A DNA stretch of 64,000 nt from an uncultured Candidatus Saccharibacteria bacterium. GTDB taxonomy: Bacteria > Patescibacteriota > Minisyncoccia > Phycocordibacterales > UBA9973. Each line of letters begins with the position of its first letter. Within the stretch, counting starts at the first letter, position 1. Below, in pieces: positions 1,723-63,591 of the stretch. A program made the translations under genes and the position numbers. The notes beneath the pieces are model-generated. The model saw only the letters and a list, made by a program, of their open reading frames with translations. It had not been told where the DNA came from and ran no database searches. The stretch spans positions 63,097 to 127,096 of the forward strand of contig CAYZYV010000003.1 in the NCBI GenBank assembly GCA_964482735.1, given 5' to 3'.

Positions 1723-3459
1723 TTATCCTAATTTTCTTTCTTTAATATCCGATTTTATCTTTTCGATAAAACTTTCTATTGTAATGTTTTCTAGCTTTTC
1801 ATTTCTCCCCTCAACAGTTATGACTTTTGCATCACGTTCTTTATCTCCAACAACAATCATATACGGAATTTTTTGCATTTTTGCATTTCGAATTCTTTTT
1901 CCTAGAGATTCATTGGTGTCATCTAGTTCTATGCGAATATTTTCTTTGTTAATTTTTTCTAAAATTTCTTTTGCATATTCTTTCTGGTGTTCAGAGACAG
2001 GTAAAATTATTACTTGAACAGGGGCAAGCCAAACAGGAAAAGCCCCAGCAAAATGTTCAATCATAACTCCCATAAACCTTTCAAGTGATCCAGATATTGC
2101 CCTGTGAATAACAACAGGTCTTTCGTCTTCACCTTTTTCATTTTTAAAGGAAAGATTAAATCTTTCTGGAAGATTAAAATCACATTGAATTGTTGCTAAT
2201 TGCCACTCGCGTCCGATTGCGTCTTTAAACATAAAGTCTAATTTTGGTCCATAGAAGGCTGCTTCTCCAACTCCGAGCTTGTAATTTAATTCATTTTCTT
2301 TAGCTGCTGTTTCAAGAGCGTCTTCTGCTTTTTGCCAAACTTCGTCACTGCCGAGATATTTACTCTTGTCTTCACCCCTGGTTGAAAATCTTACCCAGTA
2401 ACCATTCATCATTCCCATTGTGTTGTAGAAATCTTTAATAATTTTTACAATCGTTCCGACCTCTTCTCCGATTTGAGAAACTCGACAGAATAGGTGTCCA
2501 TCATCTTGAGTAATCGATCGAACTCGAGTAAGTCCTGAAAGTTGACCAGCTTTTTCATAACGATACACAGTTGCAGGTTCAAAATATCGAATCGGCATAT
2601 CCCTGTAAGAGAATTGATTGTCGGCAAATATTTGCATGTGATGAGGACAGTTCATTGGCTTCATGAAGAATTCTTCATCTCCGCCCTTAACGCGGAATAA
2701 TTCATCTCCAAATTTTGCAGCATGCCCTGATGTTTGATATAAATCTTGTTTCGCTAGGTGAGGGGACCAAATACGAAGATAGCCTTTGTTTTTATGTAAT
2801 TCCCAAAGATAATCCTCGATCTCTTTTCGGATGGTCATCCCTTTTGGTTGAAGAAGGGGAAGGCCAGCACCGACAAGGTCAGATAGGGTAAAGAGTTTTA
2901 ATTCTTTTCCTAGTTTGCGATGGTCTCTTTTTTTGGCTTCTTCTTGTTGAAAGACATATTGATCCAGCTCTTCTTTTGTTTCGAAAGCTAACCCGTAAAC
3001 TCGCGTGAGCATTTTGTTCAACTCATTCCCTCGCCAATATGCACCAGCAATTTTTTCTAATTTAAACGAACCATCTTTGATGTCTTTTACATTTTCAATA
3101 TGCCCTCCTCGGCAAAGGTCAACAAAGTTTCCTGATTGATAAACTGTGATTTCTTCGTTTTTTCCACTTATTTCATTTATGAGTTCCAGCTTATATTCAT
3201 TATCTTTAAAAATTTCTAAAGCTTCTTCTTTTGTTAAAACTCTTTTTTCAAAAGTTGACCAAGTTTTTATGATTTCTTTCATCTTGTTTTCTATTTCTTC
3301 AAGATTAGCATCGGTTATCTTTCCATTGACATCAACATCATAATAAAAACCATGCTCAATAGCTGGCCCAAGGGTTATTTTTGACCCAGGATATAATTCT
3401 AATATTGAAGCCCCCAGAAGGTGAGCTAGAGAATGTCTTATTTTTTCTATTTTTTCCAT
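1723..3459 (-). CDS. thrS: Threonyl-tRNA synthetase (lacks N-terminal TGS domain; begins at N2-like domain)
   Basis: MEKIEKIRHSLAHLLGASILELYP...GFYYD matches the ThrRS N2/editing region. Class II catalytic core and anticodon-binding C-terminus are present. Start set at the internal Met (MEKIEK) because the upstream Mets lie inside the T-box leader. Confidence 0.88.
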   Translation of the reverse strand: MEKIEKIRHSLAHLLGASILELYPGSKITLGPAIEHGFYYDVDVNGKITDANLEEIENKMKEIIKTWSTFEKRVLTKEEALEIFKDNEYKLELINEISGKNEEITVYQSGNFVDLCRGGHIENVKDIKDGSFKLEKIAGAYWRGNELNKMLTRVYGLAFETKEELDQYVFQQEEAKKRDHRKLGKELKLFTLSDLVGAGLPLLQPKGMTIRKEIEDYLWELHKNKGYLRIWSPHLAKQDLYQTSGHAAKFGDELFRVKGGDEEFFMKPMNCPHHMQIFADNQFSYRDMPIRYFEPATVYRYEKAGQLSGLTRVRSITQDDGHLFCRVSQIGEEVGTIVKIIKDFYNTMGMMNGYWVRFSTRGEDKSKYLGSDEVWQKAEDALETAAKENELNYKLGVGEAAFYGPKLDFMFKDAIGREWQLATIQCDFNLPERFNLSFKNEKGEDERPVVIHRAISGSLERFMGVMIEHFAGAFPVWLAPVQVIILPVSEHQKEYAKEILEKINKENIRIELDDTNESLGKRIRNAKMQKIPYMIVVGDKERDAKVITVEGRNEKLENITIESFIEKIKSDIKERKLG

Positions 3460-3574: not shown

Positions 3575-3790
3575 AGCTAAAATAAAATCGCCCCGACGAA
3601 ATGTGAAAAATTCACTTTCCGTCGGGGCGAGTCTAATCGCGGTTCCACCCAACATTTATAACTTCATTAACATTATAGATTAGCCCCATGAGGTCCAGAT
3701 TATTACCTAGATTATGGTTGGTAGCCATAACAATCTCTATACATAGAATAATACAATGAATGTTTTTAAAACACAAGCACTTTCTACTTC
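3575..3790 (-). promoter_or_regulatory. T-box riboswitch leader of thrS (Thr specifier ACC)
   Basis: The minus strand reads ...aaatgttGGGTGGAACCGCGattagactCGCCCCGACGgaaagtgaatttttcacatttCGTCGGGGCGattttatttt. This is the T-box consensus (GGGUGGNACCGCG) overlapping the 5' arm of a 10-bp terminator hairpin followed by a U-run. A Stem I-like hairpin ttatgg-CUACCAA-ccataa carries an ACC Thr codon, with an AGAGA motif nearby. Confidence 0.65.
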
Positions 3791-3880: not shown

Positions 3881-4714
3881 ATGTTCAAGAAACATCAAAA
3901 TTCCAAAATTAAAGCTTTCACCCCCACACCTACTTTTAGAAAGCAACATAGTTGCGCGTCTACGACGCATTCTGAAAGTGGGTGTAGGGGGTTTACTCTC
4001 ATCGAACTCCTCGTCGTTGTCGCCATCATCGGCATACTCTCCGGAGTAGTCATTGCATCACTAAACAGTGCACGAGAGAAAGGAAAAATCGCAGCCATCA
4101 AGTCTACTCTCAAGAACATGCAATCTCAAGCCGAAATCACATATACTGATACAGGAAGCTATGCTTCACTATACAACTCTTCCACCTACGATTGTATCGG
4201 TCCATTAGCTAACATGGCTTCTAGCCTCACAGACAAAGGAGTAACAGTTAAATGTTATTCTAGAAACGATTCATCCCGTAATGATGTTTACTTAAGATTC
4301 GGCGCTACTGCTATCATCTACGATGCCAACGATTTCAAAGCATGGTCCACAGACCAAAACGGAGTAGTGACTTGGGATCAGAAAGGAGTAAATACTACTG
4401 GTGCTTATGTAGATACAGATGTATATTCAGGTATGACATATTCTGTTTCAACTACTGCGTGTACTACTGCCGGAGGAAGGTTGCCATCTTTGGAACAACT
4501 ATTTACTTTGGCAAGAGCTTATGGATCAGCTTCACTAGCTGCGACTGGTACCACTACCTACAAGCCTACAAGTGCAGGCTTCGTGGCGCACTACTATTGG
4601 TCTTCTACCATCGTCCCGTCTGATGGTTCGCTGGCTTACAGTGTGAGCTTTAGCAGTGGTAACGCCGTCACGCACTCTACTGCGAGCTCCGACTATGTCC
4701 GTTGTGTCCGGTAG
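3881..4714 (+). CDS. Type IV pilin-like protein (N-terminal GFTLIELLVV prepilin motif) fused to a C-terminal DUF1566/Lcl-like domain
   Basis: G|FTLIELLVVVAIIGILSGVVIAS is a class III signal / N-methylation motif. The C-terminus RLPSLEQLFTL...YWSST...AYSVSFSSG...YVRCVR resembles DUF1566. RBS aggagtg lies 13 nt upstream. Confidence 0.7.
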   Translation: MFKKHQNSKIKAFTPTPTFRKQHSCASTTHSESGCRGFTLIELLVVVAIIGILSGVVIASLNSAREKGKIAAIKSTLKNMQSQAEITYTDTGSYASLYNSSTYDCIGPLANMASSLTDKGVTVKCYSRNDSSRNDVYLRFGATAIIYDANDFKAWSTDQNGVVTWDQKGVNTTGAYVDTDVYSGMTYSVSTTACTTAGGRLPSLEQLFTLARAYGSASLAATGTTTYKPTSAGFVAHYYWSSTIVPSDGSLAYSVSFSSGNAVTHSTASSDYVRCVR

Positions 4715-27930: not shown

Positions 27931-27939
27931 ATGTATAGT

Positions 27940-28163
27940 CGCCTTAGAGACTCGAACGTGAGGAAGCCTCTTCGCTTTAGTTATGCTTTGACATAACCTA
28001 TATGTTTAATAATGAACTGCTTAACAGGCTTAAACAGAGAAGCCCTTCACTTTAGTTATGCTTTGACATAACCTATATACTTGTTATTGAGCCGCTTCAG
28101 AGACTCGAAGGTGAGGAAGCACTTCGCTTTAGTTATGCTTTGACATAACCTATATTTTTTTAC
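27940..28163 (-). repeat. Three tandem ~75-bp direct repeats. Each is a ~37-nt copy of the tRNA-Thr 3' half (T-arm plus acceptor 3' strand) joined to a conserved hairpin gttatg-ctttga-cataac
   Basis: The units begin at 27940, 28013 and 28088. The motif cgctttagttatgctttgacataacctata recurs with period 75/77/72 and continues in register into the intact tRNA. Confidence 0.8.
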
Positions 28164-28238
28164 TGAGCCGCTTCTCAGACTCGAACTGAGGACCTTCGCT
28201 TTACAAAAGCGTTGCTCTACCAACTGAGCTAAAGCGGC
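28164..28238 (-). tRNA. tRNA-Thr (anticodon UGU)
   Basis: Cloverleaf folded by hand: acceptor gccgctt/aagcggc, D-arm agctcagttggtagagc, anticodon loop tt-tgt-aa, T-arm ctcag-ttcgagt-ctgag, discriminator U then CA. Confidence 0.85.
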
Positions 28239-38759: not shown

Positions 38760-39023
38760 AAAAAGATCGTACACACAGCACGAGGCGTACGATCCTGGGG
38801 AACTTGGGTGGGCCTGCGCTTATAACTGGCCCTATTTTGTAAAACATACAGTAGTTTTGTAAAAAGGAAAACCTCAAGGAAATAAAGAACATTCAGCACC
38901 TATAACTACTTAAGAACAAATTCAAAACTACTGTAGTTTGTTGATATAATTATAGCAAATTAAGTTTAAAAAGTCAAATAGAAAATGAAAGCAAAAATTA
39001 CCCTTATATGCTAAGATATTATT

Positions 39024-39080
39024 AGTTTTATGTCCAAAAACATTTTCAAACTTAAGAGTTCATACTCTCCGGCTGGAGAC
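39024..39080 (+). repeat. Duplicated copy of the uvrB 5' end (RBS region plus the first 17 codons)
   Basis: tagttttATGTCCAAAAACATTTTCAAACTTAAGAGTTCATACTCTCCGGCTGGAGAC differs from 39150-39207 by two substitutions, tat/tac and gat/gac, both synonymous. Confidence 0.85.
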
Positions 39081-39156
39081 CCCAGAAGTAAAACAAAAAA
39101 TCGGATGCATTTTTTGTTTACTACGGGGCGGGAAGTGGTAGTATAGTTTTATCTTT
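39081..39156 (+). mobile_element. Miniature imperfect-palindrome element (copy 1), immediately upstream of the uvrB ATG
   Basis: CCCCAGAAGTAAAACAAAAAAT-cggatgc-ATTTTTTGTTTACTACGGGG (20-bp stem) followed by the tail cgggaagtggtagtatagttttatcttt. Confidence 0.6.
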
Positions 39157-41316
39157 ATGTCCAAAAACATTTTCAAACTTAAGAGTTCATATTCTCCGGC
39201 TGGAGATCAGCCGAAAGCTATTTCAGAGTTACTCAGTGGTCTAAATAGGGGGATGGAAAAGCAAACTTTATTAGGGGCAACAGGAACAGGTAAGACTTTT
39301 ACCGTAGCAAATGTAATAGAAAAATGGAATAAACCAGTTTTGGTCATTGCACACAACAAAACTCTTGCAGCCCAACTCGCTCAAGAATTTAAAGAATTTT
39401 TTCCAGATGCAGCAGTTCACTATTTCGTTTCCTATTATGATTATTATCAACCGGAGGCGTATATGCCAATATCAGATACATATATAGAGAAAGATGCCCA
39501 GATTAATAAAGAGATAGATCGTTTAAGACATGCCACAACCCAATCTCTCTTAACAAGAAAAGATGTGATTATTGTGGCTTCTGTGTCTTGTATTTACGGG
39601 CTTGGTTCTCCTTCGGAATATGAGAAGGTAAATTTAAGATTAGAAAAAGGAATGACTTTGGATCGATTAGGATTAATGCGAAAGCTTATTGAGATTCATT
39701 TTGAAAGAACTAATGCAGATTTAAATCCAGGTTCTTTTAGATCTATTGGTTCAAAAGTAGAGATAATGCCTGTTTCAGATAATTTTATTTTTCAAGTTGA
39801 ATTTTCTGGTAATAAAATTTCAAAAATATCAAAAGTGGACCCTGTTTCTTCAAAAGTTTTGGATGAACCAGAAAACATTTTTGTCTTTCCAGCAAAGCAT
39901 TTTATAACAGAGAAAAAACAAGTTGAGATTGCTATTAAAGACATTAAAAAAGAGTTAAATGATCAGGTTAAAAAATTTGAAAAAAAAGGAAAACTTTTAG
40001 AGGCTGAAAGAATAAAAAGGCGTACTAACTACGACTTGGCAATGATTAGAGAAGTAGGTTATTGTAATGGAATTGAAAACTATTCTCGGCATTTGTCTGG
40101 CAAGAAAGAAGGAGAACCTCCTGAGACACTCCTTTCCTATTTCAAAGAAGATTTTTTAACTGTAATAGATGAATCACATGTTAGTTTACCTCAGCTTCAA
40201 GGTATGTATAGGGGTGACGCTTCGAGAAAAAATACCTTGGTGGAATATGGTTTTAGGTTACCATCTGCTAAAGATAATCGGCCTCTAAAATATCCTGAAT
40301 TTGAAGAAAGGGTTGGCCAGGTAATATATGTATCTGCTACTCCAAGCGACGAAGAAAAGAAATCGAGTGGTCAAATAGTAGAGCAAATCATTCGCCCAAC
40401 AGGCCTTGTGGATCCAGAGGTTATCGTAAGACCTGTGAGTGCAGGTAAAGATTTTTCAGCCAAATCATCAGTAGATGATCGCTCGACTCATTTGAGTACA
40501 AATGAGTCGAGGGGACAAATACAAGATTTTATCTTAGAGGCAGAAGAAACAATTAAAAAAGGTTATCGTGTTTTAGCAACTACTCTTACTAAAAAAATGG
40601 CAGAAGACCTGTCTAACTATTTAAAAGAAAAAGGATTAAAAGCCGAATATCTACACAGTGAGATTAAAACAATAGAGAGGATTCAAGTCTTAACCTCATT
40701 TAGAAAAGGTGATATAGACATTTTGGTTGGAGTAAACCTGCTTAGAGAAGGTTTGGATTTGCCAGAAGTGGCATTGATAGGGATATTAGATGCAGATAAA
40801 GAAGGTTTTTTAAGATCGGAAACTTCTTTAATTCAAACCATAGGACGAGCAGCAAGAAATGCCGAGGGGCGAGTGATTCTGTATGCTGATGAAATGACGA
40901 AGTCGCTTAGTAAGGCAATAGAAGAAACAAATCGTCGTAGATCTATCCAGTTGGACTATAATAAGAAAAATAACATTACCCCAAAAACTATAATTAAAAA
41001 TATAAAAGATATCACAGACGATCTCGAAAATAAACACGAAAAAGTTGTAAACGCAGAACTTGGTTTTGATTTAGAGTTATTTAAAAAAGCTTTTGATAAA
41101 AGCAAGTCAAACCTAGATAAAACTGAAACTGAAAGCTTGAGAAATTTAAAAATTTCTGACGAAGAAAGAAGTCTAAAAGTCTTTGAGAAGATTATTAAGA
41201 TAAAAGAGAAGGAAATGAATCGAGCTGTAAAAAATTTAGATTTTGAAACAGCAGCTATTTTGAGAGATGAAATAATCAGTCTAAGGGGTTTATTAGGAGA
41301 AAAAAACAATAAATGA
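39157..41316 (+). CDS. uvrB: Excinuclease ABC subunit B
   Basis: LLGATGTGKTFTVANVIE helicase motif I, beta-hairpin region, C-terminal UVR domain. Confidence 0.9.
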   Translation: MSKNIFKLKSSYSPAGDQPKAISELLSGLNRGMEKQTLLGATGTGKTFTVANVIEKWNKPVLVIAHNKTLAAQLAQEFKEFFPDAAVHYFVSYYDYYQPEAYMPISDTYIEKDAQINKEIDRLRHATTQSLLTRKDVIIVASVSCIYGLGSPSEYEKVNLRLEKGMTLDRLGLMRKLIEIHFERTNADLNPGSFRSIGSKVEIMPVSDNFIFQVEFSGNKISKISKVDPVSSKVLDEPENIFVFPAKHFITEKKQVEIAIKDIKKELNDQVKKFEKKGKLLEAERIKRRTNYDLAMIREVGYCNGIENYSRHLSGKKEGEPPETLLSYFKEDFLTVIDESHVSLPQLQGMYRGDASRKNTLVEYGFRLPSAKDNRPLKYPEFEERVGQVIYVSATPSDEEKKSSGQIVEQIIRPTGLVDPEVIVRPVSAGKDFSAKSSVDDRSTHLSTNESRGQIQDFILEAEETIKKGYRVLATTLTKKMAEDLSNYLKEKGLKAEYLHSEIKTIERIQVLTSFRKGDIDILVGVNLLREGLDLPEVALIGILDADKEGFLRSETSLIQTIGRAARNAEGRVILYADEMTKSLSKAIEETNRRRSIQLDYNKKNNITPKTIIKNIKDITDDLENKHEKVVNAELGFDLELFKKAFDKSKSNLDKTETESLRNLKISDEERSLKVFEKIIKIKEKEMNRAVKNLDFETAAILRDEIISLRGLLGEKNNK

Positions 41317-48984: not shown

Positions 48985-49125
48985 CGCCACTCGCAAAATT
49001 CCACGACCCTGGCTCGTGATTTTGCTTGCTAGCAAAATTATCACTCCGCCTTCCACAGCTAAAAAACAGCATGCAGATGCTGTTTTTCTTAACGCTTGTG
49101 GACCCTACAGGAGTCTCTCCTTCGA
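48985..49125 (-). repeat. Partial direct copy (unit 1) of the tRNA-Ala 3' end, its trailer, a terminator hairpin and ~100 nt of flank
   Basis: tttcttaacgcttgtggaccctacagga is identical at 49095-49122 and 49353-49380. The flanks ccttccacagctaaaa / ctttccacaagctaaaa are similar. The hairpin sequence differs but stays self-complementary. Confidence 0.75.
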
Positions 49126-49366
49126 CTAAAACCTTTTCGTCAAAAAGTTTTGTCTAGGCACCAGCTCGTCTGTTTTTTGAGACAGTTATGGAATGCTTTG
49201 CATGCTAAAACCATGTGTGTCACAAGTCACTAAATATTTTGCTCCAGGTATTCGCAAAATATGTAAGTGCTCGCGACCCCAGCTCGGCAATTTTTCTGCT
49301 GAAAAATTATGCCTGTGCTTTCCACAAGCTAAAAGCCTCCAGCAGTGGAGGCTTTCTTAACGCTTG

Positions 49367-49439
49367 TGGACCCTACAGGACTCGAACCTGCCACCCCCTC
49401 ATTGCAAATGAGGTGCTCTACCAGATGAGCTAAGGGCCC
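49367..49439 (-). tRNA. tRNA-Ala (anticodon UGC) with G3:U70
   Basis: gggccct/agggtcc acceptor with the G3-U70 identity pair, anticodon stem cctca/tgagg, loop tt-tgc-aa, T-loop ttcgagt. Confidence 0.85.
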
Positions 49440-49610
49440 ATATTCTTTTTTAATCTACTTTGCCTTTAGTTTATACTGTTGCTTCCATGAAGCGCTACAG
49501 ATGAGCTAAGGGCCTATAAAACATAATCTTGAAACACTATTATATTAACTTATTTTAAAAAAATTGCAAGTAAAATTAACTATTTTCCTTTAAAATGATA
49601 CAATGTTGCT

Positions 49611-50978
49611 ATGCCATTAAACAAAGGAAATAAAATACAAACCGTTAAGTATTCTCCTCCTCCTCCAAATCTTCCAATGCTTGGGAAGGTAGATCCTAGC
49701 CAAGCTGTTTTTATTGGAAGAACAAATTATGTAGCAGCCTTGGAAGAAAAGAGGTTTGTTTTTGGTATTAATCAAAACGATAGAAGACGTCATGTTTATA
49801 TTGTAGGTAAATCTGGGGTAGGTAAATCAAAATTAGAAGAAGTAATGATTCGTCAGGATATTGCTTATGGCAGAGGTGTATGTGTTATCGATCCGTACGG
49901 AGAATTAGTAGAAGAGATATTAAATTTTATTCCTAAAAATAGAGTAAATGATGTTTGTATCTTTAATCCTGAAGATGTTAATTTTCCTGCATCCTTTAAT
50001 CCATTTTCAAGGGTAGAACCGACATTCAGACACCAATTTACTCAAAGTATCGTAGAAATTTTACAGAAACAATTTGGAAATGATTGGAGTCCTAGAATAG
50101 AGCATGTGATTCGTTTTTCAGTATTAGCTTTGCTTGATTGTGAAAATTCAAACATGCGAGGGATGATTCGTATTTTGATTGATAAAAAATATCGAGAAAA
50201 GGTTATAGATAATATAAAAGACGACATGGTTCGTCATTTCTGGAAAGAAGAGTTTGAAGAGTGGTCTAAGAAGTTTGATTCTGAAGTAATAATTCCTATC
50301 GTGAACAAGTTGTGGCAATTTCTTTCTAACCCGATGCTTACCAACATATTTGGTCAAAAGGAAAACAAAATAGATTTTGAAAAAATAATGAATAATAAAA
50401 AAATTATTCTTGTTAACTTAGCTAAGGATAAAATCGGAGATGAAAATGCTTCATTCTTGGGTGCCTTGTTTATGACAAAAATTAGACAAGCAGGTATGTC
50501 TCGAGCAAAGTTGAATCCTTCAGAAAAGAATGATTTTTATCTTTATATTGATGAATTTAATAATATAATAACTGATGGTTTTGAAAACATTTTATCTGAG
50601 TCTAGAAAATATGGAATTAATTTAACTATTGCCCATCAATATATCGGTCAATTGTCTCAAAAAATAGAACAAGCAGTTTTAGGTAATATAGGAACTATAA
50701 TTTTGTTTAGGGTTGGGGGAGACGATGCTACCAAGTTGCGATCTGAATTCGCTCCTATTTTTGATGTTAAAGATATGATTAATTTAGGAACAGGAGAGTT
50801 TTACATTAAGATGATAATAAATGGTGAAAGTTATGACCCATTTTCATCAGAAACCTTAGAAGTTTTACCGACACCACACACATCTTTTAGAGAAGAAGTT
50901 TTAGGTTCTTCTAGAAGATTCTATGCTACCACAGAAGAAAACGCTTCTAAAATTATGGCTGAAGATGAATCTTCTTAA
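49611..50978 (+). CDS. Soluble FtsK/HerA-superfamily P-loop ATPase resembling T4SS coupling-protein (VirD4/TraG/TrwB) DNA-binding ATPase domains; paralogue 1
   Basis: Walker A VYIVGKSGVGKS, Walker B LYIDEFNNI, arginine finger and sensor SESRKYGINLTIAHQY. No TM segments. Confidence 0.55.
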   Translation: MPLNKGNKIQTVKYSPPPPNLPMLGKVDPSQAVFIGRTNYVAALEEKRFVFGINQNDRRRHVYIVGKSGVGKSKLEEVMIRQDIAYGRGVCVIDPYGELVEEILNFIPKNRVNDVCIFNPEDVNFPASFNPFSRVEPTFRHQFTQSIVEILQKQFGNDWSPRIEHVIRFSVLALLDCENSNMRGMIRILIDKKYREKVIDNIKDDMVRHFWKEEFEEWSKKFDSEVIIPIVNKLWQFLSNPMLTNIFGQKENKIDFEKIMNNKKIILVNLAKDKIGDENASFLGALFMTKIRQAGMSRAKLNPSEKNDFYLYIDEFNNIITDGFENILSESRKYGINLTIAHQYIGQLSQKIEQAVLGNIGTIILFRVGGDDATKLRSEFAPIFDVKDMINLGTGEFYIKMIINGESYDPFSSETLEVLPTPHTSFREEVLGSSRRFYATTEENASKIMAEDESS

Positions 50979-51026
50979 AATAAAGCTTTTTAGTTTGTTT
51001 TAAATAAGGTATAATAAAAGTAATTT

Positions 51027-53111
51027 ATGGATAACGAAATTCCTAATAATAAAGATATCACTTATTTTGCGAAGACTAATTTTCGTAATACAAATACTGT
51101 TTTTGGAATAAAAAGAAAAGATCGTCGTCAGCACATGTATGTCCTCGGTAAATCTGGTACCGGTAAATCTGTTTTGTTGCATAATTTAATAACTCAAAAC
51201 ATTAAAAATGGAGAGGGCGTTTGTGTAATAGATCCTCACGGAGAACTTGCTGAAGAAATACTAGAATTGATACCAGAAAATCGCATAAAAGATGTTATTT
51301 ATTTTAACCCGGCAGATCCTGATTTTCATATAGGTTTTAACGTTCTACAGATTGATGACCCTAAGCTTAAGCACTTAGTTGCTTCTGGTATTATGGGTAT
51401 TTTTACTAAAATTTGGGCAAATGCTTGGAGCTCTCGTATGGAGTACATTTTAAACAATGCTATTTTGGCCCTCTTAGATACGCCAGGAACTACACTTTTG
51501 GGGATACCTCGTCTTTTAGTCGATAAAGAGTATCGTCAAATGATTATAGGCAATCTAAAAGATCCAATTGTTAAATCTTTTTGGTTGCACGAATACGAGG
51601 AATGGAGAGACCAATTTAGAAATGAAGCGATTGCCCCTATTCAAAATAAAGTTGGACAATTTTTGTCTACTTCTATCATTAGAAATGTGGTTGGTCAATC
51701 AAAATCAACAATTGATATCTTCAAAATAATGAACGAAGGTAAAATCTTTATTGTTAATGTTTCAAAAGGAAGAATAGGGGAAGATAACTCAGCTTTGCTT
51801 GGAGGTATGATTATTACCAAGCTTCAATTGGCAGCTATGGAGAGAGTTCGTATTCCTGAAAACGAGAGAAGAGATTTCTATCTTTATGTTGATGAATTTC
51901 AGAACTTTGCTACTGAATCTTTTGCCAACATTCTTTCTGAAGCGAGAAAGTATCGTTTAAATTTAATTATTGCTCACCAATATATAGCTCAAATAGCAAA
52001 CTCTGAAGGTTCCAAAGTTTCTGATGCAGTTTTTGGTAACGTTGGAACAATGATTATTTTTAGAGTAGGAGCAGAAGATGCCCAGTTTTTGGAAAAAGAA
52101 TTTGAACCAGAATTTACAGCTCAAGACTTGGTTAGCTTACCAAATTACAATATCTATTTGAAATTAATGGTAGATGGTGTAACTAGTCGTCCTTTTTCAG
52201 CAATAACTTTACCACCAATGGTTTCTGTTGATCCTGACAATGATACTAAAGAAAGAATCATAGAGTCCTCAAGGGTCTTGTATGCACGATCACGAACCGA
52301 AGTAGAATCAGAGATAACCAAATGGAGTACCACTCTTCAGACAAACGAAGGTGAAGCTAAATATAAAGTAGAGTGTACAAACTGTAAAAAGCAAACTACT
52401 GTTCCTTTTGAACCAAAGGAAGGAAAACCCGTTTACTGCAAGGAGTGTTTAATAAAAATAAAAAGCGGGGAGTTAAAACCAGAAAAAGGATTTTTTGTAC
52501 CAAAGACCAACAATCAAGAAAATAAAGAAGCTGTAGCTTCTCTCGCTTCTTTAGGTATAGAATTCAAATCAGATATTAATCATAATAACAGAGATAATTT
52601 TTCTAGAAGACAAGAACAAAAAACAAACCCAGATCACAATCAACCAAAAAATAGTCATTCTTTTAATCCAAAAGAAAATCCAAGAAATAATAATGATTTT
52701 GAAAGAAGAAAAAGTTCTGGGCCATCACCACTTCTTCGTGGTTTGTTGGAAAAAATAAAATCAGGACAAGTTTCAGAGATAAAAGAAGAAAAAATAGATC
52801 TAGTAGAAGAGAAAGTAAAAACACCTGAACCTGTTTCTTTAGCTACTCTTAAATCAGATAATCCTAGCGATAAAAACACAATGATTTCAACTAAAGAAAT
52901 TTCAGATGCTCATTTATCGACCTTGAAAGACGCTTTAAGTAAAATCACAGACAAGCAAAACTCATTTGATAACTCAAAAAAAGAGCCAATTCAAAATAAT
53001 ACTGAAGTAAAGGCCGAAGATAATCAAAACGACACCTCTGCCCCTTCGTGGCAAAACAAAAAAACTGTCAAAGAAGTCCCCGAAGAAGTATTGAGAAAAG
53101 TTCTAGAATAA
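51027..53111 (+). CDS. Paralogue 2 of the same ATPase family, with a C-terminal CxxC...CxxC zinc ribbon and a ~230-aa low-complexity (N/K/E-rich) tail
   Basis: MYVLGKSGTGKS, LYVDEFQNF, SEARKYRLNLIIAHQY; ECTNCKKQ...CKEC. Confidence 0.55.
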   Translation: MDNEIPNNKDITYFAKTNFRNTNTVFGIKRKDRRQHMYVLGKSGTGKSVLLHNLITQNIKNGEGVCVIDPHGELAEEILELIPENRIKDVIYFNPADPDFHIGFNVLQIDDPKLKHLVASGIMGIFTKIWANAWSSRMEYILNNAILALLDTPGTTLLGIPRLLVDKEYRQMIIGNLKDPIVKSFWLHEYEEWRDQFRNEAIAPIQNKVGQFLSTSIIRNVVGQSKSTIDIFKIMNEGKIFIVNVSKGRIGEDNSALLGGMIITKLQLAAMERVRIPENERRDFYLYVDEFQNFATESFANILSEARKYRLNLIIAHQYIAQIANSEGSKVSDAVFGNVGTMIIFRVGAEDAQFLEKEFEPEFTAQDLVSLPNYNIYLKLMVDGVTSRPFSAITLPPMVSVDPDNDTKERIIESSRVLYARSRTEVESEITKWSTTLQTNEGEAKYKVECTNCKKQTTVPFEPKEGKPVYCKECLIKIKSGELKPEKGFFVPKTNNQENKEAVASLASLGIEFKSDINHNNRDNFSRRQEQKTNPDHNQPKNSHSFNPKENPRNNNDFERRKSSGPSPLLRGLLEKIKSGQVSEIKEEKIDLVEEKVKTPEPVSLATLKSDNPSDKNTMISTKEISDAHLSTLKDALSKITDKQNSFDNSKKEPIQNNTEVKAEDNQNDTSAPSWQNKKTVKEVPEEVLRKVLE

Positions 53112-59960: not shown

Positions 59961-60581
59961 TTAGTGGGTTTTTATTTTCTTTGATTTATATATTTTTACA
60001 AAACAATAAGCTATACCAACCAAGGATAATATTATTAAAATTTCTTTATAGTATTTTGTAAATAATTCTTGATTCATGCCAATAAAATATCCCAGACCAG
60101 CTAATATGGTAACCCAAATAAACGAACCCAATGTTGTATATACCAAAAAAGAAGTAAAATTCATTTTACAAAAACCAGCAGGAATTGAAATTAATTGTCT
60201 AATAACCGGGACTAGTCTACCAATAAAAGTAGCTGATTTAGAATTTTTTAGAAAATATTTTTCTGCTCTCTCCATTTTTTCTCTGTTTATAAAAATAAAT
60301 TTAGCATACTTATGTTCTGAAAGTTTATAGACAATGGGTCTACCCAAGTAGTAACCAATTACATAGTTAAAGATTGCTCCAATTAAACTTCCTAACGTTC
60401 CAACTATGATAATAATAAAAATATTCATTTTCCCTAGGCTGGCTAAATAAGCAGCGGGAGGCACTATTATTTCAGAAGGCATAGGAATAAAAGAGCTCTC
60501 TATGGTCATTAGAATCATAACGCCTGTGTACCCAAGGCCTTCGGTGATAGATATAAAAAAGTTAAAAAGACTGGTTAACAT
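59961..60581 (-). CDS. dedA: DedA/SNARE-associated (TVP38/TMEM64) family membrane protein
   Basis: GYTGVMILMTIESSFIPMPSEIIVPPAAYLASLG...GRLVPVIRQLISIPAG. Confidence 0.75.
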   Translation of the reverse strand: MLTSLFNFFISITEGLGYTGVMILMTIESSFIPMPSEIIVPPAAYLASLGKMNIFIIIIVGTLGSLIGAIFNYVIGYYLGRPIVYKLSEHKYAKFIFINREKMERAEKYFLKNSKSATFIGRLVPVIRQLISIPAGFCKMNFTSFLVYTTLGSFIWVTILAGLGYFIGMNQELFTKYYKEILIILSLVGIAYCFVKIYKSKKIKTH

Positions 60582-60682
60582 GATATTAATACTATCTTAA
60601 CTTATACTTTTAATCAAATAATAATATTGGTGCATTTTTAAACAAATTCTGATAATATAACGATTATGAGTTTATTAATCGG

Positions 60683-60791
60683 CCCCAGAAGTAAAAATTT
60701 AAATCGTTTGCACTTAAATTTTACTACGGGGTAAAAGGTGATATTTATTAAGTTTTTTATCAAATTAGATATTTAGTAGACAATTAATGTT
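60683..60791 (+). mobile_element. Miniature palindrome element (copy 2) immediately upstream of the ychF ATG, preceded by a 19-nt duplicate of the ychF start (60664-60682)
   Basis: CCCCAGAAGTAAAAATTTAA-atcgtttgcac-TTAAATTTTACTACGGGG, then the tail taaaaggtgatatttattaagttttttat... The upstream ttATGAGTTTATtAATCGG matches ttATGAGTTTATcAATCGG at 60790-60808. Confidence 0.6.
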
Positions 60792-61904
60792 ATGAGTTTA
60801 TCAATCGGCATTGTAGGGCTTCCAAATGTTGGGAAAAGCACATTATTTAATGCTTTAACAAAAAAGGGGGTTCCTTCAGAAAATTATCCATTTTGTACAA
60901 TTGACCCATCCGTAGGGATTGTGGCTGTTCCTGATGATCGTCTTTGGAAATTGTCTGATTTTTCCAAGTCTGCAAAAACTATCCCAGCGGCAATAGAATT
61001 CGTAGACATTGCCGGTCTAGTTAAAGGTGCTTCAAAAGGGGAAGGGTTGGGAAATAAGTTTCTCGCAAACATCCGTGAAGTTGATGCTATATTGGAGATG
61101 GTAAGAATATTCCCAGTAAAGACAGAGAGGACAAATGAAATAATTCACGTTTATGGAAACGTGGATCCACTTCGAGATATTGAAGTTATAAACTTAGAAC
61201 TAATTCTTGCTGACTTAGAAACGGTGGTAAAAAGAAGAACTAATTTATCTCATGACTTAAAAAGAGGAGTGAAAGATGCCGTGATAGAGGATAAAGCTCT
61301 TGTAAAATTAGAAATTGCTTTTGAAAAAGCTCAAATGGCAAATACTGTTTCTTTTGATGAAAAAGAGATAGAGAAAATAAAAATGTTGAATCTTTTAACA
61401 ATGAAGCCATTTATCTATGGATTGAATAAAAGAGGTGAAGGTGGAAATTTAGATGAAACTGATCCAGAGACTTTCAAAATGGTGACTGACTATATTAAAA
61501 GTACTGGGTCTACTTATGTAATTGTTGATGCAAAAATTGAAGATGAATTAAAAGATTTTGAAGGAGAGGAAAAAGAAATACTTCGAAAAGAAATGGGGGG
61601 AGATGATGATGGTATTAATAGCCTTATTAAAGAAGGGTACAATCTCCTTGGACTAGAGACTTATTTTACGACAGGAGAAGATGAGACACGTGCTTGGACT
61701 ATCAAGAAGGGAAGCACAGCTCCTGTGGCAGGAATGGCTATACATACAGATTTTAGAGATAAATTTATAAGGGCTGAAGTAGTTAATTGGCAAGAATTAT
61801 TAAACGCTGGAAGCTATGCCGAAGCTCGGGCCAAAGGAAAAATCAGAACAGAAGGTAAAGAATATATCGTTAAGGATGGGGATGTAATAGAATTTAAAAT
61901 ATAA
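60792..61904 (+). CDS. ychF: Ribosome-binding ATPase YchF (Obg family, TGS domain)
   Basis: GIVGLPNVGKSTLFNALT, NYPFCTIDP; C-terminal TGS ...YIVKDGDVIEFKI. Confidence 0.9.
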   Translation: MSLSIGIVGLPNVGKSTLFNALTKKGVPSENYPFCTIDPSVGIVAVPDDRLWKLSDFSKSAKTIPAAIEFVDIAGLVKGASKGEGLGNKFLANIREVDAILEMVRIFPVKTERTNEIIHVYGNVDPLRDIEVINLELILADLETVVKRRTNLSHDLKRGVKDAVIEDKALVKLEIAFEKAQMANTVSFDEKEIEKIKMLNLLTMKPFIYGLNKRGEGGNLDETDPETFKMVTDYIKSTGSTYVIVDAKIEDELKDFEGEEKEILRKEMGGDDDGINSLIKEGYNLLGLETYFTTGEDETRAWTIKKGSTAPVAGMAIHTDFRDKFIRAEVVNWQELLNAGSYAEARAKGKIRTEGKEYIVKDGDVIEFKI

Positions 61905-61992
61905 CTTTATTTAGTCGTAATAAAATAAACAATCACTTCTCGTTCCGTAGTAAACTTTAAAAGTATTTTGTTTTTTAAAGTTTTACTACTGG
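61905..61992 (-). mobile_element. Miniature palindrome element (copy 3, inverted orientation) just after the ychF stop. A diverged duplicate of the last 12 ychF codons follows at 61994-62032
   Basis: Minus strand: CCAGTAGTAAAACTTTAAAA-aacaaaatac-TTTTAAAGTTTACTACGG, then the tail aacgagaagtgattgtttattttat. The duplicate gttaaagatggagacgtaatagaattcaaaatctaa differs from the real end gttaaggatggggatgtaatagaatttaaaatataa at 5 positions, all synonymous. Confidence 0.6.
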
Positions 61993-62033
61993 GATTGTTA
62001 AAGATGGAGACGTAATAGAATTCAAAATCTAAT

Positions 62034-62438
62034 ATGAGCAAAGGAGAAGAAGGGGTAATATTTGTATTATTCAAAGACAACAAAATATTACTGCAACAAA
62101 GAGATAAAAATTGTAAAAAATTTCCATTCAAATGGTGTATTCCTGGTGGAGGAAGAGAAGAAAATGAAAGTTATGAAAAAACTCTTTTGAGAGAAATTAA
62201 AGAAGAGTTTGATATGGATTTGAATGTAGAACAATGTGAATATATAACAGATTATCCAAATAATGAAATTAGAGTGTATTTGTGTAAAATAAACCCAGAC
62301 CAAATACCAACTTTGAATGAGGGAATGGCAATGAAATGGGGGTCCATTCAAGAAATAAAAAATATGGAATTAGGATTTAATCAAGATAAACTAATTTTAT
62401 TATTAGAAAGTTATTTAGAAAAAACCAATGATTACTAA
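62034..62438 (+). CDS. Nudix hydrolase
   Basis: Nudix box GGGREENESYEKTLLREIKEEFDMD. Confidence 0.7.
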   Translation: MSKGEEGVIFVLFKDNKILLQQRDKNCKKFPFKWCIPGGGREENESYEKTLLREIKEEFDMDLNVEQCEYITDYPNNEIRVYLCKINPDQIPTLNEGMAMKWGSIQEIKNMELGFNQDKLILLLESYLEKTNDY

Positions 62439-63042: not shown

Positions 63043-63591
63043 TTATTTTTGTTTACTATCTTTAGTTTTTTTGAGATGATTTAAGTGCTGTTGTTTTAAA
63101 TCGATTACTTCTTCTATTAGTTTGCCGAGGGTGTCTTCTATTCTAGCTAGCATTAGGTCATCTTTTTTCTCATCCTCATCTTCTTCTTGGATGTCTTCAA
63201 CATCCTCCTGGATATCATCAACGTCTTTTTGAATATCATCAACATCTTTTTGAATCTCATCGACATCACCCTGAATCTCATCAACGTCTTTTTGAATCTC
63301 ATCAACGTCCTCTTGAATTTCTCCAACATCTTTTGCAACCAAATGAAGTTTTCTTGCCTGACGATTAACACTCATTTGTATAAAAATAGATAGGTAAATG
63401 GCCTCGAGGGAAACTATAGTGGTAAGTACCAAAAGAATATCATCGAGGTCTATCCCGTAAAAATACAAAGCAAAAGCAAATATAAAAAGTGCTGTATGTA
63501 CTAAAAGCGAGTTGGTAGATCCAACCCATCTTGTTGCCTTCGTTGATATTTTTTCTATGGTGTCCCCAGATTTTCTTCTTAATTCCTCCAT
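63043..63591 (-). CDS. DUF1003-like two-TM membrane protein with a C-terminal acidic heptad-repeat region (DVDEIQK x7)
   Basis: LVHTALFIFAFALYFYGIDLDDILLVLTTIVSLEAIYLSIFIQMSVNRQARK (DUF1003-like), then 7 x DVDEIQK-type heptads. Confidence 0.5.
   Translation of the reverse strand: MEELRRKSGDTIEKISTKATRWVGSTNSLLVHTALFIFAFALYFYGIDLDDILLVLTTIVSLEAIYLSIFIQMSVNRQARKLHLVAKDVGEIQEDVDEIQKDVDEIQGDVDEIQKDVDDIQKDVDDIQEDVEDIQEEDEDEKKDDLMLARIEDTLGKLIEEVIDLKQQHLNHLKKTKDSKQK
63190..63336. repeat. Seven tandem 21-bp repeats (coding heptads of the 63043..63591 gene)
   Basis: gatatcatcaacgtctttttg / aatatcatcaacatctttttg / aatctcatcgacatcaccctg ... with period 21. Confidence 0.85.

Follow-up and report, generated by a model that had tools for sequence, protein, structure and literature searches.

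A hairpin element with a fixed-length arm at gene termini of candidate phyla radiation bacteria

The described systems closest to the element reported here are repetitive extragenic palindromic (REP) sequences and REPINs with their RAYT proteins, palindrome-associated transposable elements (PATEs), IS91/ISCR elements and Helitrons, integron attC sites and the attP of CTX phage, tyrosine-integrase islands with their cis-mobilizable elements (CIMEs), and miniature inverted-repeat transposable elements (MITEs). The element was found in a stretch of 64,000 nucleotides (nt) of contig CAYZYV010000003.1, the whole of which is referred to below as the window. This is a low-GC genome fragment of the candidate phyla radiation (CPR), whose YchF and UvrB proteins are 76-99% identical to proteins of Paceibacterota/Nomurabacteria metagenome-assembled genomes. 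The element is a DNA palindrome that occurs alone or, more commonly, as a unit in which an arm of 76-77 nt closes with a copy of the terminus of a housekeeping gene; the resident terminus is displaced to the other side of the hairpin and the gene continues from the arm. CPR bacteria have tiny, gene-dense genomes with little room for mobile DNA. The family represents a way for an element to live in essential genes without harm.

With the REP/REPIN-RAYT systems and PATEs the element shares a short imperfect palindrome, stem bulges, the lack of autonomy and of target duplication, and the potential to act as a folded single strand. The GTAG motif of REPs is found here on the bottom strand (CCCCGTAGTAAA). 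In REPs it stands at the 5′ foot and the palindromes often form inverted pairs, whereas here it lies inside the bottom-strand arm and copies are single or in direct tandem. REPs are also extragenic, lack an arm and never displace gene termini, whereas many copies of the present element lie inside coding sequence. Neither RAYT nor TnpA was found in the Pfam scan of the window or in the recurrent clusters of open reading frames (ORFs) from the loci. PATEs of the IS200/IS605 type have two different hairpins and a target of 4-5 nt; in contrast, each unit here has one hairpin and a target of A|Y only. IS91/ISCR elements and Helitrons also combine a hairpin with a tetranucleotide (CTRR there, CRRG here), insert after an A without duplication and have a longer form that takes in DNA beside the hairpin end. 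However, they measure kilobases, encode Rep/Hel proteins and capture DNA of arbitrary length, whereas the arm is fixed here at 76-77 nt (rarely 28-29). In addition, a copy of the present element lands at a homologous gene terminus, and its 5′ end is the other arm of the same hairpin.

Integron attC sites and the CTX attP resemble the hairpin in the conservation of structure, in outer boxes around a variable inner stem and in extrahelical bases on one strand. Their enzyme can be encoded elsewhere, and head-to-tail arrays occur. In contrast to attC, the R″/R′ boxes (RYYYAAC/GTTRRRY) are absent here, and some copies read GTTTAC, which does not fit GTTRRRY. There is no IntI in the window, the 77-nt arms contain no ORF, and the targets are many gene termini instead of attI or dif. 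In CIMEs and tyrosine-integrase islands, as here, the copy carried by the element restores the terminus while the resident one is left as a direct repeat with allele-like differences. These islands are, however, 100-1000 times larger and use one site per integrase at the 3′ end of a tRNA or protein gene, whereas the hairpin units have at least 20 targets at 5′ and 3′ ends, a fixed arm and no common att core. MITEs are characterized by terminal inverted repeats and a target duplication of 2-10 bp; here solo cores are free of duplication and units are flanked by similarity of 10-72 nt. To our knowledge, no mobile element produces gene-end replacement at a fixed distance of about 77 bases from a conserved hairpin. 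Full-text literature searches returned no description of such elements, and the only Rfam matches in the window, whether at the gathering threshold or with E ≤ 1, were four tRNAs.

The hairpin, its arm and its targets

Three copies are present in the window, at the start of uvrB and at both ends of ychF, as the initial annotation had claimed. It placed all three between 60664 and 62032; the two ychF copies are there as described, and the uvrB copy lies outside this interval, at 39030-39206. A covariance model built from family members gives the three hairpins the scores listed below and everything else in the window at most 25 bits, the next-best matches being ordinary terminators. The outer-arm motif is likewise enriched, with five matches in the window against 0.8 expected. 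Below, X denotes the live gene start or end and X′ the displaced copy adjoining the hairpin. The gene termini form direct repeats of 71 nt (uvrB 5′, 89% identity), 20 nt (ychF 5′, 95%) and 39 nt (ychF 3′, 85%) with spacings of 127, 126 and 128 nt, respectively; the left part of the 71-nt repeat is S′ of the uvrB copy. The parts of the copies are as follows.

39009-39029, plus strand: S′, native uvrB leader with extended -10-like TGCTAAGAT, now 5′ of the displaced start
39030-39079, plus strand: X′, displaced first 50 nt of uvrB with the ATG kept; its final A directly adjoins the hairpin
39080-39128, plus strand: hairpin of copy 1, 49 nt, inner stem CAAAAAAT, loop CGGATGC; 83.5 bits, DNA fold of -12.2 kcal/mol (z = -3.8)
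39129-39206, plus strand: arm of copy 1, 78 nt, with tail CGGGAAGT, -10-like TGGTAGTAT, a 12-nt leader and the live uvrB start (39157-39206)
60666-60682, plus strand: X′, displaced first 17 nt of ychF (ATGAGTTTATTAATCGG), a direct repeat
60683-60731, plus strand: hairpin of copy 2, 49 nt, inner stem ATTTAAAT; 73.2 bits, DNA fold
60732-60808, plus strand: arm of copy 2, 77 nt, with degenerate tail TAAAAGGT, leader and the live ychF start (60792-60808)
61867-61942, minus strand: arm of copy 3, 76 nt, with tail CGAGAAGT, spacer and the live ychF end with its stop codon (61867-61904)
61943-61994, minus strand: hairpin of copy 3, 52 nt, with a T-A outer pair and a long loop; 64.6 bits, DNA fold
61995-62032, minus strand: X′, the displaced ychF end (final 38 nt, own stop codon included), adjoining the ATG of a Nudix gene (62034)

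A tandem duplication of the gene start was considered as a source of the repeats and ruled out, the hairpin not being repeated after the second copy of the uvrB start.

The hairpin is an imperfect palindrome of 31-52 nt with about 20 base pairs. Its outer arms are invariant (CCCCAGWAGTAAAA ... TTTACTACGGGG) and it is followed by CRRG. The inner stems differ between copies and stay complementary: among 37 family members there are 70 cells with changes on both sides compared with 19 in shuffles, 92.6% of the stem cells are paired, only three one-sided changes occur and G-U pairs are almost absent. The outermost pair also covaries, C-G alternating with T-A. The imperfections are conserved as well and always fall on the same arm; they comprise two invariant bulged bases, A8 and A17, and an A·A mismatch. 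The strict Watson-Crick covariation and the conserved bulged A's bear out the proposal that the hairpin itself is under selection. Since the paired substitutions are accompanied by almost no one-sided G-U changes, they are characteristic of a palindrome in DNA, recognised by a symmetric protein or in folded single-stranded form, and not of an RNA.

A scan of 185,579 species genomes with the exact pattern gave 8 loci, all of them in CPR, and the same scan of metagenomes gave 65. Loci of about 7 kb each (490 kb in all, labelled L0xx) were fetched, and text-pattern false positives were set aside (L009, L035, L036, L044, L065 and L071, which read GGCCAG..., and L021). A covariance-model search of the fetched loci yielded about 67 distinct copies in about 60 CPR contigs. 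No member of the family was found outside CPR in the species-genome and metagenome scans, and the viral contigs scanned for the hairpin gave 0 matches. The element thus appears to be restricted to CPR (Patescibacteria, mostly Paceibacteria) genomes. The family is real and recurrent, and the suggestion of a new non-autonomous class at the extreme ends of conserved genes is a fair description of it.

Every copy with a recognisable duplicate has the same order of parts: X′, the hairpin, CRRGAAGT with a -10-like box, a leader, X and the rest of the gene. For all of these copies the orientation originally proposed is correct, with the duplicate on the hairpin side and the live gene on the tail side. 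Not every copy is surrounded by a duplicated gene terminus: three solo hairpins consist of the hairpin and CAGG or CAAG without arm or duplication. One of these (L048, 6580-6645) occupies the very hppA junction at which a neighbouring unit is inserted, and it truncates a gene at the C-terminus. Another is a mini-hairpin inside the displaced typA start (L017), and the third lies 13 nt before a stop codon, altering the C-terminus (L068). Tandem arrays with a period of 125-126 and nested copies are also seen.

An A precedes the hairpin in 45 of 47 copies, and in the target it is followed by C or T (A|Y). Counted from the last base of the hairpin, X ends after 74-79 nt, mostly 76-77, in 33 of the 35 clear copies. 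The ATG can fall anywhere from arm position 26 to 68 despite the fixed arm, and the similarity of X′ to X covers 10-72 nt inside the 77 nt. For example, insertions into tsaD at +16, +32 and +35 all have arms of 76-78 nt. The arm is also 77 nt long next to a 41-nt hairpin (L041) and a 31-nt hairpin (L077), so the 3′ hairpin foot is the point from which the length is measured. A minority of arms measure 28-29 nt (L003, L004, L011, L063). Two other regularities were considered and ruled out. A constant total length is contradicted by the sum of hairpin and arm, which varies while the arm does not, and a length in multiples of three that would permit in-frame read-through is contradicted by totals of 118-128 and by stop codons in the hairpin.

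The targets are housekeeping genes, with at least 20 different termini at both 5′ and 3′ ends. At 5′ ends they comprise uvrB, ychF, atpG, a clpB/C-like gene, rpsT, rplJ, clpP, tsaD, recO, xth, efp, typA and the genes for a transketolase, an epimerase and a response regulator; at 3′ ends they comprise ychF, fusA, secF, hppA and a lytic-transglycosylase-like gene. Units of the 5′ type run along the gene and those of the 3′ type are inverted, with the arm always toward the live gene. In 5′-type units a -10-like hexamer lies 16 nt after the TTTACT of the right hairpin arm, and at least four of its six positions match in 24 of 32 units compared with a background of 22%. This spacing suggests, at the level of sequence, that a 5′-type unit probably supplies a promoter to its gene. 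The initial annotation described the element as targeting gene ends. Units do sit at gene ends; the targeting may be no more than the outcome of a 77-nt arm beside a hairpin where intergenic spacers are very short. The fixed arm of about 77 nt, the most striking feature of the family, is absent from that annotation.

Three observations on the architecture stand apart. In none of 19 distinct 5′ combinations of gene and site is the insertion a multiple of three nucleotides away from the ATG; codon usage and the A|Y preference may partly explain this lack of 5′ insertions between codons. In L061 (5345-5434) an inverted, longer hairpin of the same family (CCCCGTAGTAA...TTTACTTCGGGG) lies 5′ of the displaced tsaD start and is followed by TGGTATAGT; its palindrome may offer a -35-like TTTACT in both orientations. 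In L002 (6222-7149) a small kinase-like gene lies between two copies of the hairpin that are 860 nt apart. On their right both carry one and the same longer module (CAGGAACATTTGAACCCTTCGGCA...), which differs from the usual one, and on their left the flank GAGGA; the hairpin core therefore combines with other modules.

Displaced termini and empty sites

In 36 valid pairs of X′ and X, 61 differing codons are synonymous and 18 non-synonymous, the random expectation being 14% synonymous, and 77 of the 137 nucleotide differences fall at codon position 3. X′ retains the ATG or the stop codon, with one TAA/TGA swap included. The start or stop codon marks where similarity ends, with a mismatch of about 11% in the coding and 58% in the adjoining non-coding sequence. 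In some pairs (L046, L072, L041) the part next to the junction is identical and the part farther from it has diverged. The displaced termini thus look like functional alleles and not like products of random decay, as the synonymous bias and the retained start and stop codons indicate. In the window the seven synonymous changes out of eight reported initially are reproduced (one synonymous in uvrB, one non-synonymous at the ychF 5′ end and five to six synonymous at the 3′ end), and the bias persists with more copies. The uvrB X′ matches the live start at 49 of 50 bases, the single difference being synonymous (TAC/TAT). The displaced ychF end encodes the peptide VKDGDVIEFKI and a stop codon, the same as the live end, with five synonymous differences. 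In a 99% relative (L074) the displaced ychF start is still identical to its live start. The left-most displaced end of hppA, a pair not included in the codon counts above, specifies by eye the same 21 residues as the live end with about 20 synonymous differences.

Orthologous loci in relatives provide the clean empty sites that the initial annotation proposed to look for. Relatives with ychF identities of 94% and 87% are empty at both ends of the gene, and a 91% relative carries a unit at the 3′ end but none at the 5′ end; the empty-site loci of ychF are L076 and L080-82. A 99% relative is filled at both ends as in the window. The uvrB relatives, at 85-88% identity (L086-L090), are empty without a scar. 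The extended -10 of uvrB TGCTAAGAT aligns with TGCTATATT in the leaders of the empty-site loci L086, L087 and L089, and the S′ of ychF aligns with the native leader of L077 (p about 0.003). The native leader thus lies to the left of X′; therefore X′ is the resident terminus, and the hairpin and arm are the inserted side. The leaders within the arms gave no significant match to the AT-rich native leaders of empty-site relatives, the S′/L077 alignment excepted.

Comparison of close strains shows where these loci turn over. Between the window and L083 (98% UvrB identity) the left flank is 96-100% identical and X′ is identical, and the hairpins belong to different subtypes. To the right of the hairpin the leader differs by 19%, about 850 nt follow at 84-96% identity, and the remainder is 100% identical. 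L083 and L085 are 100% identical for 3.2 kb from the first hairpin base and unrelated to the left of it, where L085 carries a tRNA-Ser and a decayed uvrB-like remnant. The break falls at the first hairpin base, and the left hairpin foot is therefore a recombination breakpoint. Between the window and L074 the ychF 3′ arm is the most divergent part. Hairpin subtypes are tied more closely to the target locus than to the genome, which implies that each locus received its insertion long ago and that lineages have exchanged the insertions.

A separate observation concerns gene order. Relatives have a VKOR-like gene, ychF and sua5, and the window adds DedA (59961-60581) before and Nudix (62034-62438) after ychF. 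There is overlap between the displaced end of ychF and the start of Nudix (TAAtATG), as though the two had once belonged to a single operon.

Origin of the units

The preferred reading, with a probability of about 45%, is a non-autonomous hairpin element with a ruler-defined arm that carries a replacement gene terminus, is mobilised in trans and is shuffled by homologous recombination. The core, a palindrome of 31-52 nt with CRRG, can insert alone, usually after an A and without target duplication. In the common form an arm is attached to the core: it starts with AAGT and the -10-like box, a leader comes next, and X closes it at 76-77 nt past the hairpin. The unit lies immediately past the corresponding point in the resident gene, so that the resident terminus is displaced as X′ and the gene continues from the arm. 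From this architecture and from the covariation, arm length, empty sites and turnover described above we infer the following mechanism of mobilisation. An enzyme supplied in trans, of the HUH or the Xer/integron-integrase type, would recognise the hairpin as folded single-stranded DNA and make two cuts, one at its foot and the other about 77 nt from it, at a position set by a ruler. The arm would direct or stabilise re-insertion at the homologous terminus. Filled and empty alleles would coexist and be exchanged by natural transformation and homologous recombination, and recombination between X′ and X would remove the unit precisely. On this model X′ stays like an allele, since it serves as the live terminus at every empty site; similarity is expected to stop at a codon boundary, and some pairs to match next to the junction and diverge farther out. 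The link to gene ends would result from the 77-nt arm, intergenic spacers that are shorter than the arm and selection against disrupted genes. That the family also represents a new insertion mode, in which a single-strand enzyme specific for the hairpin moves it with the ~77-nt arm as a homology address, so that the unit lands at the same terminus of another genome or allele, replaces that terminus and, in 5′ copies, the promoter, and leaves the gene unbroken, is doubtful.

Several results weigh against the preferred reading. The initial annotation reported no integrase or transposase in the window, and Pfam searches of the ten unassigned ORFs agree, returning gyrB, RNase R, NYN, two TraG/VirD4-like ATPases and similar hits but neither a recombinase nor an HUH gene. 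When the 562 ORFs of all loci were clustered, the families obtained were housekeeping ones only, with no candidate effector or enzyme. The sole recurrent recombinase near units is an Xer-like gene explained by conserved xer-xth synteny. No full-length relative or autonomous copy was found in the window or in the 490 kb of loci, and no excised form or fresh insertion was observed among the loci studied. Tabulated by eye, the CRRG tail and the junction bases show no guide-like covariation, and a simple promoter scan of the window copies did not call a promoter in hairpin or tail. The linkage of subtypes to loci fits old insertions, inherited or recombined, better than frequent transposition, and homologous recombination alone could give much of the pattern after the first event.

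The main rival is a long target duplication made in situ, in which a staggered, ruler-defined cut duplicates about 70 nt of resident DNA and the differences stem from age and recombination; such a process would be comparable to the repeat duplication by Cas1-type integrases, but longer. A staggered cut would be expected to leave a direct repeat of constant length around the insert. The uvrB repeat of the window (71 nt) does begin at the -10 box in both copies, the repeat of L010 spans 72 nt, and several leaders are weakly alignable with gaps (L005, L029, L031, L059). However, solo cores are inserted without duplication, and at six loci X′ equals X at 100% (L016, L008, L057, L072, L046, L083) yet the adjoining non-coding sequence is unalignable. 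The AAGT tail and -10 box are common to units at different genes, so they are borne by the element and not derived from the target. We know of no bacterial transposition that makes 70-bp duplications. In-situ duplication is thus unlikely to account for the family.

The units could also be a non-mobile regulatory cassette of the host, a portable insulator or promoter whose pseudo-start is selected as a short leader ORF. The -35-like TTTACT with enriched -10-like boxes in 5′-type units, the ATG kept in X′ and the termination of pseudo-start ORFs within or just past the hairpin are in line with this idea. It is nevertheless very improbable, given inverted units at 3′ ends where no promoter is needed, presence and absence among close relatives, tandem and nested copies, solo insertions that truncate (L048) or alter (L068) the C-termini of genes, and leader-ORF frames that vary between loci.

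The explanation offered by the initial annotation was that of miniature or decayed site-specific integrative elements, remnants of larger integrase-encoding elements with a substitute gene end in their attP. Integrases that target tRNA genes and gene ends typically leave the gene with a terminus brought in by the element. An element-borne copy does replace the terminus here, and duplications of tRNA-Thr and tRNA-Ala termini are also present in the window. However, one hairpin serves at least 20 unrelated termini and three positions within tsaD (those given above), no junction core is conserved beyond A|Y, and solo copies exist. The uniform units of about 125 nt are not what random deletion would leave, no integrase is adjacent except by synteny, and the 490 kb of loci contain no full-length relative. 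This origin is scarcely credible. An RNA-guided system, IscB/Cas9- or TldR-like with X′ as guide joined to a hairpin scaffold, is close to negligible: a duplicate of a host gene segment does adjoin a conserved structured element and mismatch falls slightly toward the hairpin (17-18% at 31-42 nt, 9% at 1-6 nt), but the covariation is of the DNA type with virtually no G-U pairs, mismatches occur inside the 6 nt beside the hairpin (L006, L007), the duplicate varies from 10 to 72 nt, no effector gene is nearby in the window or the locus ORF clusters, and the differences follow codon structure and not a seed.

If the arm does address insertion, a protein together with DNA would write about 125 nt at the end of a selected gene, and no double-strand break would be involved. 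The family would then be a naturally programmable, self-healing cassette for gene-end replacement in the ultra-small CPR genomes, of relevance to mobile-DNA biology and to genome engineering. On a more conservative reading the elements mark recombination breakpoints and, judging from their -10-like boxes, are probably promoters for the core genes uvrB, ychF, atpG, clpP, tsaD, rpsT and efp. Pseudo-starts and pseudo-ends of this kind will mislead gene callers and strain-level comparisons of CPR metagenomes.

Other repeats in the window and the loci

A second arrangement with the same logic of a hairpin and a displaced terminus, built on an unrelated hairpin, is found at 27937-28238. It comprises a tRNA-Thr gene (28165-28238, minus strand) and then three tandem units of about 76 nt, each made up of a hairpin of 20 nt (GGTTATGtcaaagCATAAC), a spacer and a diverged tRNA 3′ half that starts right after the anticodon. 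The viral contigs scanned gave 0 matches to this tRNA-Thr-linked hairpin. A tRNA-Ala gene (49366-49439, minus strand) has a partial copy of its 5′ part at 49498-49518 and, 268 nt downstream, a copy of its 3′ end with a terminator-like hairpin (49085-49126). Two genes for TraG/VirD4-like coupling proteins lie beyond the tRNA-Ala copies at 49611-53111. The region from 49085 to 49518, together with these genes, may be the remnant of an integrated element.

Native leaders 5′ of many start codons contain 7-nt repeats, TAATTAG/TAATTAT or ACTAGAA/CCTAGCT, which place stops in all three frames. Examples are found in L034 (~1090-1150), L006 (~2930-2975), L019 (~4130-4215), L031 (~3715-3760) and L004 (~3330-3400), and the repeats occur with and without the hairpin element. 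Finally, seven 21-nt tandem repeats at 63161-63349 of the window lie in an ORF on the minus strand (63043-63591) and encode acidic DVDEIQK-like heptads.

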